64,000 bases of DNA from a virus (IMGVR_UViG_3300031344_000001); one strand, 5' to 3'; positions 26,085-36,175 are shown, numbered from the stretch's first letter. A program made the numbers and translations. The notes: a model not told the origin generated them from the sequence alone.

Positions 26085-26210
26085 AAGAGCAGCCGAGTGA
26101 AGAGTGCTTGGATGAATGCAGGGAGTTTTGAAATCCCAACCTTCGGCTTCGTAGGCCGACGCTCTACCGTTGAGCTATGCGTGTGAGCACTCTAAGGATT
26201 GGCTGCTTCT
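26085..26210 (-). ncRNA. Y-RNA-like ncRNA containing tRNA D, anticodon (ACG) and T-like arms
   Basis: closing stems GCAGCC/GGCTGC and AGAGTGCT/AGCACTCT; T-run after. Confidence 0.65.
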
Positions 26211-26212
26211 CG

Positions 26213-26335
26213 AGGCGGATCTTGGAGTCGAACCAAGCGGCTTGTAGACATTCGACGTGTGTCTCCTCGCGGAGACGAGTGCCGCTGTCGGGATTTCTTC
26301 CAGTAAGAAGTGGGACACCGCGTCCCTTATCCGCC
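26213..26335 (-). ncRNA. tRNA-like RNA with very large (about 55-nt) variable region
   Basis: GGCGGAT/ATCCGCC acceptor; CTTGG-TTCGACT-CCAAG T arm. Confidence 0.65.
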
Positions 26336-26343
26336 AAAAACTA

Positions 26344-26480
26344 GGCCGCCGAGTTGAGAGTCCTGGATGCTTTTCAGCCTGTTTACGAGACAGGTGCCGG
26401 AACCGACCGGCGTTCAGATCCTCTTTCGAGGACTTGTGGGAGTTGAACCCAAGGCTTGTGAGGACTCTCGGTTGGTGACC
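26344..26480 (-). ncRNA. Y-RNA-like ncRNA with permuted tRNA-like domain
   Basis: GAGAGTCCT/AGGACTCTC stem; T arm first, then GAAA hairpin, then GG-loop hairpin. Confidence 0.65.
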
Positions 26481-26491
26481 GAGCGAGTGGG

Positions 26492-26520
26492 ACTTTAACC
26501 AATAGGAGGGTCGCTGTCAA
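26492..26520 (-). promoter_or_regulatory. promoter TTGACA-N17-TAAAGT
   Basis: near-consensus; upstream of the three ncRNAs. Confidence 0.75.
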
Positions 26521-26525
26521 GCAAT

Positions 26526-27095
26526 TCAGACGGCGACGACGCTGACCGGCGAGATCGAAAACCCGACCTTCTTCTTGTCCTTCAAGAAGAGCTGGACCGA
26601 GCGCGCCATGCACGCCGCCGTGAGTGCGATGAAGGGTAGGAACTCTCCATCCTCACACGTCGCGGCGCCCGCGCCGACCTCGCTGTCGATGACGAAATGA
26701 TCGTCCCAGATCGAGCGACCGAACTCACCGCCCGGCGCGAGCGCACCGTGGAGACAAGGCACGTTGTGCTCGCGCACGTAGTCCTGCACGAGCTTCCGCG
26801 ACGCCCCATTGTCGAGGCAGTCGACGACGAGCTCCGCGTCCTTCAGCAGGACGTCGACGTTGTTCTCGACGAGCTTGTGGCTCACGACCTGGAGGTTCTT
26901 CTTGAAGAGGAAGTCCATCACCTGCTTCAAAGCATCGACCTTGCTCTTCCCGACGCCCGGCTTGCCGTGGAACTGCGACATCACGTTCTTTTGCTCGACG
27001 CGGTCGAAGTCGACGACCTTGATGTCCGCCTTCTCGTTACGGATGAACTGGACCAGGTGGCTGCCCAGCGCGCCGGCTCCGACGATGACGATCAT
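26526..27095 (-). CDS. ThiF/MoeB (E1-like) adenylyltransferase
   Basis: VGAGALGS; DFDRVEQKN; K..L; DCLDN; ATCE. Confidence 0.9.
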   Translation of the reverse strand: MIVIVGAGALGSHLVQFIRNEKADIKVVDFDRVEQKNVMSQFHGKPGVGKSKVDALKQVMDFLFKKNLQVVSHKLVENNVDVLLKDAELVVDCLDNGASRKLVQDYVREHNVPCLHGALAPGGEFGRSIWDDHFVIDSEVGAGAATCEDGEFLPFIALTAACMARSVQLFLKDKKKVGFSISPVSVVAV

Positions 27096-27107
27096 GGGTG
27101 ACCTTCC

Positions 27108-28067
27108 TTAAAGGACATCTCGGTAAATCTTCCGATTGACGATGTTACAGATGGTCACCTTGCTGACACCGTAATGCCGGCCAAGAGCTGCTGCCGAAAC
27201 ACCCCGCGCATTTGCCTTGCGCACACGTCGCACCTGCGTAGGCGTCAAACGACGTAACGCGCGTCCTCTTGGTATCGCCGGGCGCACGTGTTTCAACTTA
27301 TAGGCGCAGCAACGTGGGACGTAGGGCCGGATCAGCTGGTTGAGCTTGAAAGCGTCATCCCGTCGATTAATTCTGACGACAGGCCCGTCCGTTGCCTGTC
27401 CTACGCTTGCGTGCACGTGGAAGATCTTCGAGAGACTGCGTGCAAGTCTACAAACGTCGATCCTCAAAAATCCTTGTGTACAAAACGCCATGGTCCCATT
27501 CGCGGAACCGGTGCCGTCACCGCAGTACCACAAGGCGACTGAGAGCGGCGTAATAGCGAGATCCTGCGGGACACGCTTCGCGCCATGCGGGTACCAACGA
27601 AGGCGCTGCTCCTTCGTTTCTTTGTACGTATGCGTGTAAAAAGTTCGATGCGCCCCGCTGCGCACCTGTCTACCTTTGATGACCGCTGCACGTTTTGGTG
27701 CACACGCGGGCGTAATTCCACACGCGATCTTTAAGTCAACGCACCGACGCAGGATCGCCCGAAGCCATCCAGCACGCCGCACTGACTGCGGCACCTGAAG
27801 TGCGCCTGCACGGTTGATACAACCATCACCTAGTAGGAGACCATCAACAAGCTCTTTGAACCTAGCCTCCTTGCTGGGGCTCAACCGCAACTCCTTGACG
27901 GTGTGCCGTTCTCCGGATGGTCGAATCTTCACGCCTGCCTCGCGCAGACGTTGAAGCACCGTGTTCAACGAACAGTGGTACCGCGGCGCTAGTTCCAGCG
28001 CGCTCGTCCCACTTTGATACGCGACGATGAGTGCGTTCGGATCTAGGAGCAGGCGCCGACGTGTCAT
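27108..28067 (-). mobile_element. free-standing LAGLIDADG homing endonuclease
   Basis: GLLLGDG and LWYCGDG motifs; HTH at both ends; lower GC. Confidence 0.85.
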
Positions 28068-28312
28068 CAGACGCCGAAGGGCGTCTTAGGCCTAAGCACC
28101 AAGCGAGCTGGAAGACCATCCCTCTCCGCGAACCGATCCACGACAAAGTCATGAAAATCAGCATTGGGGTCCGCGTCGATCCCGGGAATGCCGCCAGTGC
28201 GCACGGTTTCAGTCGCCCACGCCTTGACATCAGCGTCTGTCGCGTCGAAGGAGACCGGATCTCTGAGATCGCCGTTTTGACCGTTCACCGTAATGTTCAG
28301 CAACGCTTCCAT
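28067..28312 (-). CDS. ubiquitin-like (beta-grasp) protein ending KTPFG-V
   Basis: size; penultimate Gly; lies between JAB and E1 genes. Confidence 0.65.
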   Translation of the reverse strand: MEALLNITVNGQNGDLRDPVSFDATDADVKAWATETVRTGGIPGIDADPNADFHDFVVDRFAERDGLPARLVLRPKTPFGV

Positions 28313-28406
28313 GAGAAAACTCCCGATTGCAGGTTCTAGCACGTCATGTTTACGGACATCAAGGTCAGGTCAAGGGCAAAGGCCAAGGTCAGATCGCCTT
28401 GCAGCG

Positions 28407-28793
28407 TTACCCTGCGTTCACATTCGATAACCGCCGCAATTCGACAAGCCAACCAGGCTCTTCTGAAACGACCGTGACCCGATAGGAAATCTTGTCAGGT
28501 CCACCCCAGCGGAGCAGGACCACGTGGTCTGAACTGATGATCCACCAGTCGAGACGCTTGCCAAGCGCAGCCTCGATGGCCGCGAACGTGGTGACGTCCG
28601 AATACGAGGGGTCCGGAATGCCGGAACCCGGGTGACTGTGCGCGAACCCGAGCAGCTTGTCTTCCTTGAAGGCGTCCCAAAGGACCTGCCACAAGGTCCG
28701 GCTGTCGGGAAGACTCCCCGCCGTGCGCCCCTCGGGCAGATGCCAGAACAACGGGTTCCCGCTCTTGTCGATGACGACGCCCGCCTCGATCAC
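28407..28793 (-). CDS. JAB/MPN metallopeptidase
   Basis: E near N-terminus; HSHP...PSYSD. Confidence 0.85.
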   Translation of the reverse strand: MIEAGVVIDKSGNPLFWHLPEGRTAGSLPDSRTLWQVLWDAFKEDKLLGFAHSHPGSGIPDPSYSDVTTFAAIEAALGKRLDWWIISSDHVVLLRWGGPDKISYRVTVVSEEPGWLVELRRLSNVNAG

Positions 28794-28795
28794 GG

Positions 28796-29377
28796 CTAGC
28801 GATCCTTCACGACGGGGTTGCGCGGGATGCTGGCGAGCGTGTCGGCGACGCTCCGGTTCAGCTCCTGGTACGCGTACGAGACCTTCTGCGAGACCTCAAC
28901 GTAGTAGGGGTGCCGGAGCCACGCCGCGTAGGCCGTGTCCCCACGAACCTTGTTGCACTTCCGACAAGCCGCGACGAGGTTCGCCTCGATCGTGGGACCG
29001 CCGTCCTCCCAGCGCACGAGGTGGTCGACCGTGAGCGGCAGCTTCTCGGTGCCGCAGTAGCGACACATGAAGTTGTCCCGACGGTAGACGTTCCACTGGA
29101 CCTGCGTGTCGACCTGGCGCTGCGACTTGCGCGCGATCGCCTTGTACAGATCGCCGTCCTTGCGCTGACCGAGCACCTCGGTCTCGACGAGGTCGGCCTG
29201 CCGAAGCATCGCCTTCCAGTCATCGTGGGTCATCTCGACGAGCGTCGGGTCCTTGCCCTCGTCACGCGCCGATGGAAACGGGAAGTAGAACCCCGCGCCG
29301 TTCGAGTCGGTGTAGACCACGCCGACCATCTGGATGGTAGTGCCGATGTCCGTGAGCTTGATGTCCGAGAACTTCAT
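28796..29377 (-). CDS. HNH endonuclease domain protein
   Basis: RDNFMCRYCG..TVDH..GG....NLVAACRKCN. Confidence 0.85.
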   Translation of the reverse strand: MKFSDIKLTDIGTTIQMVGVVYTDSNGAGFYFPFPSARDEGKDPTLVEMTHDDWKAMLRQADLVETEVLGQRKDGDLYKAIARKSQRQVDTQVQWNVYRRDNFMCRYCGTEKLPLTVDHLVRWEDGGPTIEANLVAACRKCNKVRGDTAYAAWLRHPYYVEVSQKVSYAYQELNRSVADTLASIPRNPVVKDR

Positions 29378-29386
29378 GACCTCACC

Positions 29387-29968
29387 CTATTCCGGGATGT
29401 AGTGCCTGAACGTCAGGCTCACGCGGGGCGCCATCTTGCGATCGCCCTTCGGGATCTTGTGGAAGTAGCCGCGCTGGAAGAGCGTCGGCATCACGAACAG
29501 CGCGCCGTGCCCGAGGAGCTGTCTCTGGTCGGCAGGAATCTCCCCGGTCGCGCTCTGCGGCTTCCACCAGATCTCTCGCGCCTGCCCGAACGAGACCACC
29601 GCGATGGGGTGCTCGTGGTTCATGCCCGGCGAGTCGTCTGCGTGCCACCCGAGGTGCTGACCCGCATCCGCGTAGCGGTTGAGGAAGCAGACGTTGTACT
29701 GGCGCTCCTTGACCGCGAGCCCGAGCCCGTCGTGGATCAACGGCGCCGTGTTCAGGTGCTGGCGGATCACTTCGACCCAGGGCAAGAACGGCGTCGAGGC
29801 GTACGTGCGCACACCACGACCAGAGCCGTAGGTGTAGGTCAGCGGCGTCAGCGCCATGAAGCACTCCTGACGCGCCTCGGTGAACGTTCCCCAGGGGACG
29901 CTCGCGAGGTCTGCCGGCGAGGCGTCGGCGTAGTCAGTCACGTAGACAGGCTTCATGGCAATCCTCAC
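29387..29968 (-). CDS. AlkB-family 2OG-Fe(II) dioxygenase
   Basis: LNRY..GWHADD..HKIPK..RVSLTFR. Confidence 0.9.
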   Translation of the reverse strand: MRIAMKPVYVTDYADASPADLASVPWGTFTEARQECFMALTPLTYTYGSGRGVRTYASTPFLPWVEVIRQHLNTAPLIHDGLGLAVKERQYNVCFLNRYADAGQHLGWHADDSPGMNHEHPIAVVSFGQAREIWWKPQSATGEIPADQRQLLGHGALFVMPTLFQRGYFHKIPKGDRKMAPRVSLTFRHYIPE

Positions 29969-30897
29969 ACGTGTCGGTAGACGACGAGCTTGCCTTCACG
30001 CTTCGCCTGTCGAAGGACGGCAGGCAGCGACTCGAGCGTGAAGTACGTGTCGCCCTTTTCTCCGCTGTCGTGGTCGACCAGACAGATCCCAGAATCAATG
30101 ATGCCCAGCCGCTCGTTGCAGATGCACTCGTAGCGCGCACCGTCGAGCCGGTACTTGACCGCCCACTCGTTCTTGCGAACCTGGCGCGCGTCGAGGAGCT
30201 CGGCACCGGCGACTTGAAGAGCAGCTCGAGCCGCGGCGGCGAAGTCGTGGAGCGCCATCTCGCGACGACCCTCACCGTCCCCGAGCTTCTTCACCAACTC
30301 CTTGCGCCGCTCCTCCTTCTGGCGCTTCTCCTCCTCTTCTCGACGGACGCGCTCAAACTCGACGCGACGGCGCTCGGCCTCGGCACGCTGCCAGCTCTCC
30401 ATGCGGAAGGCGGCGTCGAGCGCCGGGGGCACGCTCTTGATAAACGCGACGGACGCCGCCTGATCGAGGAAGGCTTCGAGCACCTGGTCCTCTTGCCCGA
30501 GAGGCATCTCCAGCCCCTGGTAGACCAGGGGGCCCTCCGGGTTGACCCGGCCCGCACGCACGCGCACGAAGCGATCCAGCCCGTCGTCCAGCAGGAAGAC
30601 CTTCTCGGAGAACTTCGTGATGCGCCGCGGGTCCGGATCAACGCGAACGTCGTCCATGACGACGCGGTCACCCACCAGGTAGCCCCGCACGGAGTGCTTG
30701 AGCAACTCCGGCTGAGCGTCCGCAACTCCCTCGACACGCGCGCTCCGGTTGACGACCTTGAAGGTGAACCACCCGTGCTCTTGAGGCTGACGACCCTCGA
30801 TCGACCAGCGCTGCGCGCTGCCGAACAACGTCCCGCCGCCGAGCCACGGGAGGGTGACCCTCTCGTCGCCTGTCTGGAGTAGATCGCGCCAACCCAT
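29965..30897 (-). CDS. hypothetical protein in the vWA/ubiquitin operon
   Basis: ORF; coiled coil; DSGICL. Confidence 0.8.
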   Translation of the reverse strand: MGWRDLLQTGDERVTLPWLGGGTLFGSAQRWSIEGRQPQEHGWFTFKVVNRSARVEGVADAQPELLKHSVRGYLVGDRVVMDDVRVDPDPRRITKFSEKVFLLDDGLDRFVRVRAGRVNPEGPLVYQGLEMPLGQEDQVLEAFLDQAASVAFIKSVPPALDAAFRMESWQRAEAERRRVEFERVRREEEEKRQKEERRKELVKKLGDGEGRREMALHDFAAAARAALQVAGAELLDARQVRKNEWAVKYRLDGARYECICNERLGIIDSGICLVDHDSGEKGDTYFTLESLPAVLRQAKREGKLVVYRHV

Positions 30898-30900
30898 GCC

Positions 30901-31116
30901 TCAACCGATCACGACGCGCCGTGGATGATCCCACTTCCGCGAACGCACGACAGCATCGGCTACCCGAGGCAGCATCCGCGGGCCATCGGCCTCACGACCG
31001 GCGGCCACATAGTCGAGCGCGATGTCTGCCGCGTACTCTTCGTTCCAATCGGCCAGGTAGACCGGCAGGTCCTGAGGCATCGCCTGGAGCAGCTCGATCA
31101 ATCGAGCGACGGTCAT
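30901..31116 (-). CDS. small hypothetical protein (MTVARLIELLQAMP)
   Basis: start overlaps the vWA gene stop. Confidence 0.6.
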   Translation of the reverse strand: MTVARLIELLQAMPQDLPVYLADWNEEYAADIALDYVAAGREADGPRMLPRVADAVVRSRKWDHPRRVVIG

Positions 31117-33008
31117 CACGCTGAGGCGCCCACTGCCATTGATCGCGGCGAGAACGCCCACGCGGGCTTCACGAGCAAGTCCGTCTTGAGGATCGTGTCC
31201 ACGAGCGACACGCGCGGTGCAGCCGCGCGGACCGTGGCCCCCACCGGCGTCGCCGCCACGAGCGCGCGGAGCGTCCGCGGGATCGCGTAGACGTCGTCGA
31301 AGGTGTCCTCTCCGATCATGAAGCACGGGAGCCCGAGCGCCGCGGCCGTGCGCTCGACGCACCCGAAGTTCTGGCCCGGCAACCTGAGGAAGCCGAAGGC
31401 CGTGGGGCGCAGCCTGGACTGCGTCACGTACTCAGCGAACGCCCCATGCTCCCCGCCGTCGCCGACGAAGATGAACAGCACGTCCTCGTCCTCCTTGGGA
31501 GGAAACCTCGCCAATGCGAGGACGCCCGCGCCGTGCGCCGTGCCGCCCTCCGCCGAGATCCCCTTGAAGGCGTTCTCGACACCGGCTGCCGAGGCGTGCT
31601 TGATCTCGACCACGCGCCCCGCCGTGTTGAACACGGCGACGTGCGTGCGGTCCGGCGGAAAGCCCTGAACGGACTTGCTCATCAGGCGCTTCGCCTTCTC
31701 GATGGAGTTACCCATCGAGGACGAGATGTCGACGAAGAAGTAGAGCCGGAGGTTCTTCACCACCTGCTCGACGGCCTTCTGGAGCGCCGTGTCGGCCGCA
31801 CCCTGGAGCTGCTCCTGCACGGCCTTGGACTTCACGTTGCTAGCGATGTTCGCCGCGCGCATGTCGTCCTCGGCCTTCTTGAGGGCACGCTCCCACTTCG
31901 CCTTGACCTCCTTGACCTCCAGGAGCCCGAGCTCCTCGAGCGTGGGCGTGAGGATGATGAGGTCCTTGTTGGACAGGGAGCCCGACTCGACGGCGGCGGC
32001 CATGATGGCCCGCGTGACACCGAGCTTCTTCGGCAAGAGCCCGACGACCCGCTTCCAGTCCGGCTTCTCGGCGACGATCTTCTCGCAGACCTGCGCCTCG
32101 GTCAGCTCGTCCCAGCTCTCGGCCTTGGACATCTCGACGCCGATGAGCATCGAGCGCCGGCCGTCCTTTGCCTGATCCTGGGACCAGGTCAGCGCCTCGA
32201 AAAACTTCGGCGTCGAGGGCTTGTAGCCGACGGCCCGCGCGAGGTCCATCACCGTGCTCTTGAAGCCAGCCTTGATGAGGCCGTCGAGCATCTTGGGGTT
32301 CTCCTCGCGGAACTGGAGCCACTTCTCGACGACCTTCGCCCAGCGCCCCAGGAACGGGCGCCGGGCGGAGTGGCCGAAACCCAGCTCGCGGTTGACGGCA
32401 GCCACGCCCGGCACCTTCAAGAGGTTGTGGACGCGGAGCAGGAGCTTCGGGTTCAGATCTTTGCCGTCCCGCCGGTGGACGAGCAGCATCGCCTCACCAA
32501 CGTCGCGGAAGTCGTCGTCGTAGAACGACACCTTGCCCCCGTCGAGCACGGGGTCACCCTTGCGGGTCTGCACGAGCATGAATGCCGCGAGCACGACCTT
32601 GAGGTCGCGGTGCTCCTGCCCGAAGGCGTACGAGGCCCAGCGCGCAGCGAACTCGTTGTCCATCCGCCAGACCTCGGCGACCTGGCGGTACATCCACACG
32701 GCGACCTCGGGGAACAGCCCCGGCGCGCGGTACTCGCCGACCACGCGCCCGTTCTCCTCGACCTTCCGATCGGCGCGCATCACGCCCTTGCGGACCTTGT
32801 TCGTCTTCTTGCCGACCTTCGTCAGCTCGTAGACGACCTTCTGACCGTTCTCGTCCTTGTGCGTGACCGGCACCCAGCGCACGCCGACCGCGTGCCGCGC
32901 GTCCGCCGTCACCATGCCGGGACGGTTGTGGACCATGTGGTCTGCGTAGTTCAGGAGCGTCTGGAGGATCTTCTCCGCCGGGCCCAGCTTCTCGTTTGCA
33001 GTCGTCAT
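31116..33008 (-). CDS. vWA-domain protein with large helical N-terminus, Ro/TROVE-like
   Basis: MIDAS DISSS..GGT..GD; architecture and RNA-repair context; TROVE call is inferred. Confidence 0.7.
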   Translation of the reverse strand: MTTANEKLGPAEKILQTLLNYADHMVHNRPGMVTADARHAVGVRWVPVTHKDENGQKVVYELTKVGKKTNKVRKGVMRADRKVEENGRVVGEYRAPGLFPEVAVWMYRQVAEVWRMDNEFAARWASYAFGQEHRDLKVVLAAFMLVQTRKGDPVLDGGKVSFYDDDFRDVGEAMLLVHRRDGKDLNPKLLLRVHNLLKVPGVAAVNRELGFGHSARRPFLGRWAKVVEKWLQFREENPKMLDGLIKAGFKSTVMDLARAVGYKPSTPKFFEALTWSQDQAKDGRRSMLIGVEMSKAESWDELTEAQVCEKIVAEKPDWKRVVGLLPKKLGVTRAIMAAAVESGSLSNKDLIILTPTLEELGLLEVKEVKAKWERALKKAEDDMRAANIASNVKSKAVQEQLQGAADTALQKAVEQVVKNLRLYFFVDISSSMGNSIEKAKRLMSKSVQGFPPDRTHVAVFNTAGRVVEIKHASAAGVENAFKGISAEGGTAHGAGVLALARFPPKEDEDVLFIFVGDGGEHGAFAEYVTQSRLRPTAFGFLRLPGQNFGCVERTAAALGLPCFMIGEDTFDDVYAIPRTLRALVAATPVGATVRAAAPRVSLVDTILKTDLLVKPAWAFSPRSMAVGASA

Positions 33009-36024: not shown

Positions 36025-36096
36025 TAGGACTGGGAGGAGTTGAACCTCTCATCGCTCGGTTATCAACCAAGTGCTCTACCGTTGAGCTACAGTCCC
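36025..36096 (-). tRNA. tRNA-Ile(GAT)
   Basis: loop TTGATAA. Confidence 0.9.
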
Positions 36097-36102
36097 GCAT
36101 CG

Positions 36103-36175
36103 TAGAGAACGTCGGAATCGAACCGACCTCAAGCGTCTTGTAAGGGCGCCATCACCGCCAGGTGGACTGTCCTCC
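36103..36175 (-). tRNA. tRNA-Val(TAC)
   Basis: loop CTTACAA. Confidence 0.8.

Follow-up and report, generated by a model that had tools for sequence, protein, structure and literature searches.

A ubiquitin-like protein cassette with a vWA protein and a tRNA-like RNA, shared by huge phages and bacteria

Why would a phage keep the enzymes of a ubiquitin-like pathway in one operon with a von Willebrand factor A (vWA) protein, beside its tRNA genes and a small structured RNA? The question is raised by eight co-oriented genes, running from 33008 to 26526 on the minus strand of a 64,000-nucleotide viral DNA (IMGVR_UViG_3300031344_000001; the whole stretch is called the window below). The region holds a single instance of a widespread cassette, made up of five proteins and a small RNA, into which genes for an AlkB-type dioxygenase, an HNH endonuclease and a LAGLIDADG endonuclease have been inserted. 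About 100 other huge-phage loci share the gene set, as do myxobacterial chromosomes. The conserved elements, in the order of transcription, are as follows.

31116..33008, minus strand: vWA protein with a metal ion-dependent adhesion site (MIDAS), 630 aa from the ATG at 33008; conserved N-terminal domain of ~400 aa and C-terminal vWA domain
29965..30897, minus strand: 310-aa core protein; OB (oligonucleotide/oligosaccharide-binding)-like barrels, a long helix and a C-terminal alpha/beta domain with Cys272, as predicted
28407..28793, minus strand: JAB/JAMM metallopeptidase, 128 aa; Pfam Prok-JAB at E 0.006 (below the cut-off) plus the JAMM motif
28067..28312, minus strand: ubiquitin-like protein (Ubl), predicted, 81 aa with the ATG start at 28312 (91 aa with the GTG start at 28342), ending RPKTPFG-V
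26526..27095, minus strand: minimal E1/ThiF-family adenylyltransferase (E1), 189 aa; Pfam ThiF at 2.6e-20
26341..26481, minus strand: structured "handle" RNA; covariance model score 74.6 bits

Alignment queries were required to recover the cassette, as queries with a single protein retrieved at most one locus. Searching IMG/VR with aligned homologues of the 310-aa protein gave 47 huge-phage loci, on contigs of up to 619 kb. All-versus-all clustering of the open reading frames (ORFs) in the 44 non-redundant phage loci places the Ubl, the JAB peptidase and the 310-aa protein in every one; 42 have the vWA protein and 39 the E1. The order vWA, 310-aa, JAB, Ubl, E1 is constant across these loci, and no sixth conserved gene was found among them. 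The first-pass annotation, made from the window alone, had read these genes as an operon; their order holds in the phages and on bacterial contigs as well.

The bacterial copies emerged when an alignment of the vWA protein was run against prokaryotic genomes, one per species; this yielded 77 further loci, most of which keep the order. About 30 of these are phage-like, with 50-63% identity, and are mostly binned in metagenome-assembled genomes of Myxococcota. About 45 form a second group of ~40% identity, mostly on bacterial contigs, and most of these have the corresponding genes in the same order. The second group includes the complete Corallococcus chromosomes NZ_CP172866 and NZ_CP102577 as well as Archangium, Labilithrix and the actinomycete Spirillospora, where a compact cassette has unrelated genes on its flanks. 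In Corallococcus (L100, L103 and others; ~11400-17400), a 6-kb block on the opposite strand, with genes for a metallophosphoesterase, a DUF2267 protein, a GMC oxidoreductase and endonuclease V, splits the JAB gene from the Ubl-E1 pair.

The source of the window is a huge, unclassified phage, because its proteins are found on a 461-kb contig and a single record among 50,697 phage genomes, Virus Rctr197k, is related to it. That relationship is seen at the protein level (50-58% identity), and a megablast of the region against the same records gave no match. In the Rctr197k record (KX853510; locus L001), the homologue of the 310-aa protein at ~13294-14232 is unannotated, a hypothetical coding sequence on the opposite strand having been called instead, and the vWA gene (~14235-16184) is entered solely as a misc_feature.

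The window has 41 tRNA and tmRNA genes. The placement of the operon directly after a tRNA array, as first described, is accurate for the window, where the end of a tRNA-Glu gene lies 80 nt upstream of the vWA start, but the array is a phage-specific setting, because 11 of the 16 loci checked have no tRNA gene in the fetched flanks. All 16 belong to the second group except L077. A distant tRNA gene is the only one at L105, and tRNA genes adjoin the cassette in L083, L084 and L077. The array was on this count rejected as an obligatory partner of the cassette. L077, from an isolate of Paraliomyxa miuraensis, is a phage-type cassette (53% identity) followed, as in the window, by tRNA-Arg(acg); the same genome has two divergent TROVE-vWA genes elsewhere (L132, L133).

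Three of the five proteins have recognizable places in a ubiquitin-like pathway. The small protein has no Pfam or PHROGs match, as is also true of the 310-aa protein. Its predicted fold is a beta-grasp (mean predicted local distance difference test score, pLDDT, 90.9), and a HMMER search of the whole library found homologues in 250 cluster representatives. The sole invariant column in an alignment of 50 of these sequences is Gly90, inside the motif RPKTPFG. Among the sequences from the loci, Gly90 is present in 95 of 96 and the preceding Phe in 94 of 96, and what follows the Gly is variable in length and has no conserved sequence: no residue in 26 proteins, one in 24, two in 17 and up to 55 in others. 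Judged by predicted fold and alignment, this is a Ubl of beta-grasp type, synthesized as a precursor with a maskable C-terminal Gly, in agreement with the original description of a Ubl whose terminal Gly is covered by one residue. Among the top structural neighbors of the Ubl model (28067-28342), three are UBL domains whose binding partner is a MIDAS domain: those of NLE1/Rsa4 and WDR12/Ytm1, which pair with MDN1/Rea1. Glu45 is invariant in the Ubl, and a MIDAS protein is encoded in the same cassette.

The JAB protein falls short of the Pfam cut-off for Prok-JAB (16.9 bits against 25). A complete JAMM zinc site is formed by E3, H52, H54, S63 and D66, each kept in at least 95% of 81 sequences. 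The E1 scores 73 bits against the ThiF cut-off of 28.1. Its invariant residues in 82 sequences include the GxGxxG glycines (G6, G8 and G11), D29, D31, R32, K52, D92, D95 and N96, and the triplet T146-C147-E148. In a phmmer alignment, residues 2-164 match Escherichia coli MoeB (PDB 1jw9), and C147 falls on the cysteine of its TCVEAG motif, which we take to be Cys187, at the position of the thioester or acyl-persulfide cysteine of E1-like enzymes. The CxxC zinc site is missing, with HFVID in place of the CYRC of MoeB, the protein ends at residue 189, and neither Pfam nor NCBIfam matches a rhodanese domain in it. NCBIfam places it in the ThiF/MoeB/UbaA superfamily far under every equivalog cut-off (for UbaA, 58.9 bits against 450), and its PADLOC matches are restricted to the E1 halves of Cap2-type models. 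By conservation across these alignments, the JAMM site of the JAB protein and both the adenylation site and the crossover-loop cysteine of the E1 are intact.

The fourth protein supplies another conserved cysteine. The 310-aa protein has at least 1334 homologues, none of them annotated. An AlphaFold2 model (pLDDT 84.4) divides it into three parts: tandem OB-like beta-barrels (~11-140), a 48-residue helix that forms a coiled coil (158-205), and a C-terminal alpha/beta domain (~208-305) made of two helices, a four-strand meander, a Cys-containing loop and a further helix. The C-terminal domain is the best-conserved part. Across 98 sequences that diverge down to ~25% identity, G270, C272, L273, D283, L288, S290, L291 and P292 are kept, with C272 in at least 95%. 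In the predicted model, Cys272 lies four residues past the fourth strand in a D-x-G-I-C-L loop. This loop and a later L-E-S-L-P segment resemble two features of ubiquitin-conjugating (UBC) enzymes, their Cys loop and WSPA segment, a likeness that serves as a lead only.

Family searches point to no E2. None of 37 C-terminal domains matches an E2 family in Pfam at E <= 10, a profile search of the PDB gave no match, PADLOC, NCBIfam and the Atlas give no E2 match for the protein, and an HPN motif is absent from it. With the whole model, Foldseek returns weak exosome and OB rows only. The predicted topology is compatible with an E2, and the 310-aa protein is a candidate thioester carrier of E2-like type. 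The earlier statement that neither a canonical E2 nor a sulfur-transfer enzyme can be recognized here extends to the conserved cassette as a whole.

The fifth protein has a complete metal site, as the MIDAS residues D427, S429, S431, T490 and D517 are invariant. Pfam VWA_CoxE, VWA_2 and VWA match it below their cut-offs. For both this protein and the JAB peptidase, the assignment is accepted despite such scores, because the invariant MIDAS and JAMM motifs compensate. A search of the PDB with the family profile found only BatA-type vWA domains, with BatA/BatB vWA structures at 2e-5. More than 1462 homologues are known, up to 90% identical over the N-terminal ~400 residues, and none bears a TROVE annotation.

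The first-pass annotation had called this protein Ro-like, a description that the TROVE searches did not sustain. Pfam gives no TROVE match in the protein at E <= 0.1 and none at the vWA gene in five whole related phage records, although control genomes did match; the lone TROVE match in those five records (9.9 bits, E 0.057) lies away from the vWA gene. Profile-profile comparison used a Ro60 reference alignment of 30 sequences, comprising the mycobacteriophage Bxz1 Ro and its relatives. The full-length hhalign probability is 20.7%, rising to 38.7% with larger alignments, and the signal comes from the vWA part. The N-terminal domain compared with the Ro60 TROVE domain gives a probability of 0.3%, equal to that of reversed controls. 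Likewise, a divergent Paraliomyxa Ro60 (L133) matches this protein family at 93% solely through its vWA part, and a feature-based Atlas search lists TROVE clusters at low rank only.

Evidence for an RNA component is of a different kind. The handle RNA has a two-part terminal stem, in which a 5' strand of the type CCGA-AG-GGCC pairs with a 3' strand of the type GGCTTCC-CAC-TCGG, enclosing a T-arm-like hairpin and other tRNA-like arms. In 2.1 Mb, a strict two-strand regular expression for this stem has 26 matches on the strand of the module and none on the other strand; one of the 26 is at 26349-26471 in the window, right after the E1 gene. By RNAalifold, 8 of 19 pairs show compensatory changes. 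In the second group, a T-loop-like motif occurs within 800 nt upstream of the vWA gene in 23 of 42 loci, compared with a background of 0.22 per 800 nt.

A covariance model (R1) built from 16 copies extends these observations, its full-length matches at E <= 1e-6 all being on the module strand. In the second group, ~31 of 43 loci have such a match, many of them loci outside the training set, and it generally ends 50-300 nt short of the vWA start. Of 66 phage-type sources, about half have one, mostly no more than 2.5 kb past the E1 and often with several copies. Weaker R1 matches are likely ordinary tRNAs. Two other R1 matches in the window, both on the minus strand, are found at 36030-36157 (50.1 bits), overlapping tRNA-Ile(gat) and tRNA-Val(tac) of the array, and at 26085-26268 (32.3 bits), containing tRNA-Arg(acg) at 26113-26184; they may be cross-matches to tRNA arms or further members of the RNA family. 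Searches of Rfam at gathering and relaxed thresholds returned tRNA and tmRNA only, with no Y RNA, YrlA or handle-RNA family. Of the Y-like RNAs that were initially described downstream of the operon, what stands is the structured tRNA-like RNA past the E1 gene; an Rfam Y RNA is not among the matches. A conserved RNA beside the cassette in both phages and bacteria supports the ribonucleoprotein link, apart from the question of the vWA protein's fold.

The most likely mechanism, to which we give a probability of roughly 0.5, is a tagging pathway that acts on or through an RNA-protein particle. JAB would remove the variable tail of the Ubl and expose Gly90, which the E1 would then adenylate before loading the Ubl onto its own Cys147. 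From there the Ubl would be handed to Cys272 of the 310-aa protein, acting as a divergent carrier, which its OB barrels and coiled coil would anchor to the RNA or the vWA protein. The final attachment would be to a lysine of some client of the ribonucleoprotein, and JAB perhaps also reverses the tag. Because the phage cassettes sit in tRNA arrays, the phage version would be expected to act on tRNA or on translation supply during infection.

Two points weigh against this mechanism. A Ro60-like character of the vWA protein is unsupported at the sequence level. In addition, Ubl systems that lack an E2 and sulfur-carrier systems share one set of three enzymes; conjugation and sulfur transfer are not separable on these grounds.

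The last point leads to the strongest competitor, which we consider possible though on balance unlikely. In an E2-independent system of the archaeal SAMP/UbaA/HvJAMM1 or Thermus TtuB/TtuC type, the E1 alone would activate the Ubl for direct attachment or for sulfur donation as a thiocarboxylate. The sulfur acceptor could be the tRNA-like RNA or the phage tRNAs, for instance, with the 310-aa protein as a substrate, an adaptor or a persulfide relay. Such a role would suit an E1 whose nearest relatives are the ThiF, MoeB, Uba4 and UbaA adenylyltransferases, a cassette in which no recognizable E2 was found and which adjoins tRNA arrays and a tRNA-like RNA, and a 310-aa protein whose predicted OB barrels could bind RNA. 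Trimming of a tail by a JAB protein is also known for sulfur carriers, such as QbsE with QbsD. However, no rhodanese, PP-loop thiolase (TtuA/NcsA type), MoaE, ThiG or CysM partner is conserved in the cassette, and the E1, with no CxxC zinc site and with its low NCBIfam scores, departs from the enzymes of these pathways. Moreover, neither the protein with the invariant Cys nor the MIDAS protein is known to have a role in sulfur-carrier pathways.

A more elaborate form of tagging is also unlikely, and we put it forward tentatively. Here the RNA would act as a scaffold: a Ro60-like ring together with the tRNA-mimicking RNA would pick the client, and a cysteine carrier of non-UBC type would transfer the Ubl to it. 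Clients would be, for example, a tRNA-binding protein that is damaged or foreign, a factor associated with the ribosome, or a nuclease. If true, this would amount to an RNA-guided protein-tagging pathway in bacteria and huge phages.

Lower still in our estimation, and improbable, is a mainly non-covalent function, in which the Ubl would be a ligand of the vWA MIDAS in the manner of the UBL domains of Rsa4 and Ytm1 with Rea1/MDN1. The E1 and JAB would then serve solely to control maturation or turnover of the Ubl, with the cassette as a regulator of how the RNA-protein particle is assembled or released.

The remaining rows concern genes and sites outside the conserved unit.

30898..31115, minus strand: spacer of 218 nt between the vWA and 310-aa genes
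29387..29968, minus strand: AlkB-type 2-oxoglutarate-Fe(II) dioxygenase, Pfam 2OG-FeII_Oxy_2 at 5.5e-17; insert specific to the window
28796..29377, minus strand: HNH endonuclease, Pfam HNH at 1.6e-10; between the 310-aa and JAB genes
27108..28067, minus strand: LAGLIDADG homing endonuclease, 319 aa, with helix-turn-helix domains; Pfam LAGLIDADG_2 at 2.8e-17
26492..26520, minus strand: promoter-like site TTGACA, 17 nt, TAAAGT; a match to the sigma-70-like consensus alone

AlkB, HNH and LAGLIDADG are accessory or mobile genes. Pfam and PHROGs give clear support to these three and to ThiF, in contrast to the vWA and JAB proteins with their weak matches below curated cut-offs. The dioxygenase is itself well supported (63 bits against a cut-off of 31.2; phrog_21963 at 1e-45), but it is absent from all 125 related loci and was for that reason rejected as a member of the system. 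A relative of the HNH gene occurs in 11 of the 44 non-redundant phage loci, at the identical site in L003, L005, L030 and L058; the HNH protein also bears an N-terminal domain of ~90 aa to which no family is assigned. The LAGLIDADG gene occurs in 6 of the 44. Elsewhere it is found at the Ubl/E1 junction in L005, L025 and L049 only, with related copies adjoining the E1 in L008 and L043. In the window its start shares one base with the Ubl stop, and the insertion point looks like a homing site within the conserved operon.

These distributions bear on the weakest explanation, that AlkB, HNH and the Ubl system form one repair operon around an RNA-damage-responsive Ro ribonucleoprotein, as was originally proposed; AlkB and HNH are indeed intact and inside the operon in the window, and an RNA does accompany the cassette, but the inference of RNA damage falls with the absence of AlkB from every related locus, the patchy HNH and LAGLIDADG genes, the missing TROVE signal and the setting of the bacterial copies, which sit among unrelated genes with no RNA-repair genes nearby, and we regard it as very improbable.

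The operon itself is much as first described, in that all of the genes named there lie on the minus strand and are packed, with intergenic gaps mostly of 12 nt or less, or overlaps. That description did not list the LAGLIDADG gene, however, and the packing is interrupted by the 218 nt after the vWA gene and by 94 nt before the Ubl ATG. The first of these gaps is typically ~10-20 nt in related loci. In the window, the 218-nt spacer corresponds to the unshared C-terminal part (~70 aa) of a candidate ORF of 153 aa at 30901-31362. The promoter-like site is placed between the E1 stop and the handle RNA.

Literature searches found the cassette, with its link between protein tagging and RNA biology, in no publication. 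A preprint on Asgard viruses reports Ro60 and E1-like genes in one virus, with no link drawn between them. Among published families, the nearest are Bil, Bub, CBASS Cap2/Cap3, the vWA-MoxR FtsH ternary systems and Ro60-Y RNA particles. Real protein conjugation has recently been demonstrated for CBASS Cap2/Cap3, Bil and Bub, some of which act in phage defense.

The operons named Bil (bacterial ISG15-like) code for the Ubl BilA, the E2 BilB, the JAB peptidase BilC and the E1 BilD (PMC11601603). Like the cassette, they devote four distinct genes to the Ubl, its cysteine partner, the JAB/JAMM peptidase and the E1, and stand alone in bacterial genomes. The cassette differs in that its proteins have no PADLOC match except to a generic (Cap2-type) E1 domain, and its cysteine partner is no recognizable E2. 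Its Ubl is predicted to be a single beta-grasp ending in Phe-Gly, it adds a MIDAS vWA protein and a structured RNA, and it is borne by huge phages. The archaeal SAMP1-3/UbaA/HvJAMM1 and Thermus TtuB/TtuC systems resemble the cassette in that a small protein of beta-grasp fold, bearing a C-terminal Gly, is combined with a JAMM peptidase and with a MoeB/ThiF-like E1 that has the conserved Cys, and a canonical E2 is absent. In contrast to these, the cassette E1 is much shorter (189 aa), has no zinc site and is not an equivalog, the Ubl ends in Phe-Gly rather than Gly-Gly, and two extra conserved proteins and an RNA are present.

Particles of Ro60 (Rsr) and Y RNA are known from bacteria and phages, including those with YrlA (PMC4201824) and the Ro60 of Thermus phage phiLo (PMC12135203). 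The resemblance lies in a large N-terminal domain joined to a MIDAS vWA domain, encoded beside small RNAs that have a terminal stem and a tRNA-like part, and near tRNA genes in phages. Unlike those loci, the cassette has neither a TROVE signal (Pfam, profile-profile) nor an Rfam match to Y RNA or YrlA, and the set of Ubl, JAB and E1 is found in no known Ro60 locus. The vWA-MoxR FtsH ternary conflict systems that include a Ubl-conjugation module (PMC7159879) likewise join a vWA protein to JAB, E1 and Ubl, chiefly in bacteria whose life cycles are complex, myxobacteria and actinobacteria among them. The cassette has no MoxR or FtsH ATPase, RING E3, Ubl-E2 fusion, EAD1 adaptor or caspase-like effector by comparison.

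The cassette would be a further and very abundant family of bacterial Ubl systems, as homologues of the 310-aa protein and of the vWA protein each number more than 1300. The cassette is unusual in its occurrence in both huge phages and the chromosomes of myxobacteria and actinobacteria, in a cysteine partner that matches no known E2, and in the company of a MIDAS protein and a tRNA-like RNA. Its presence in Corallococcus isolates offers a tractable test system. If the link is functional, the cassette would join protein tagging to RNA surveillance or tRNA supply.

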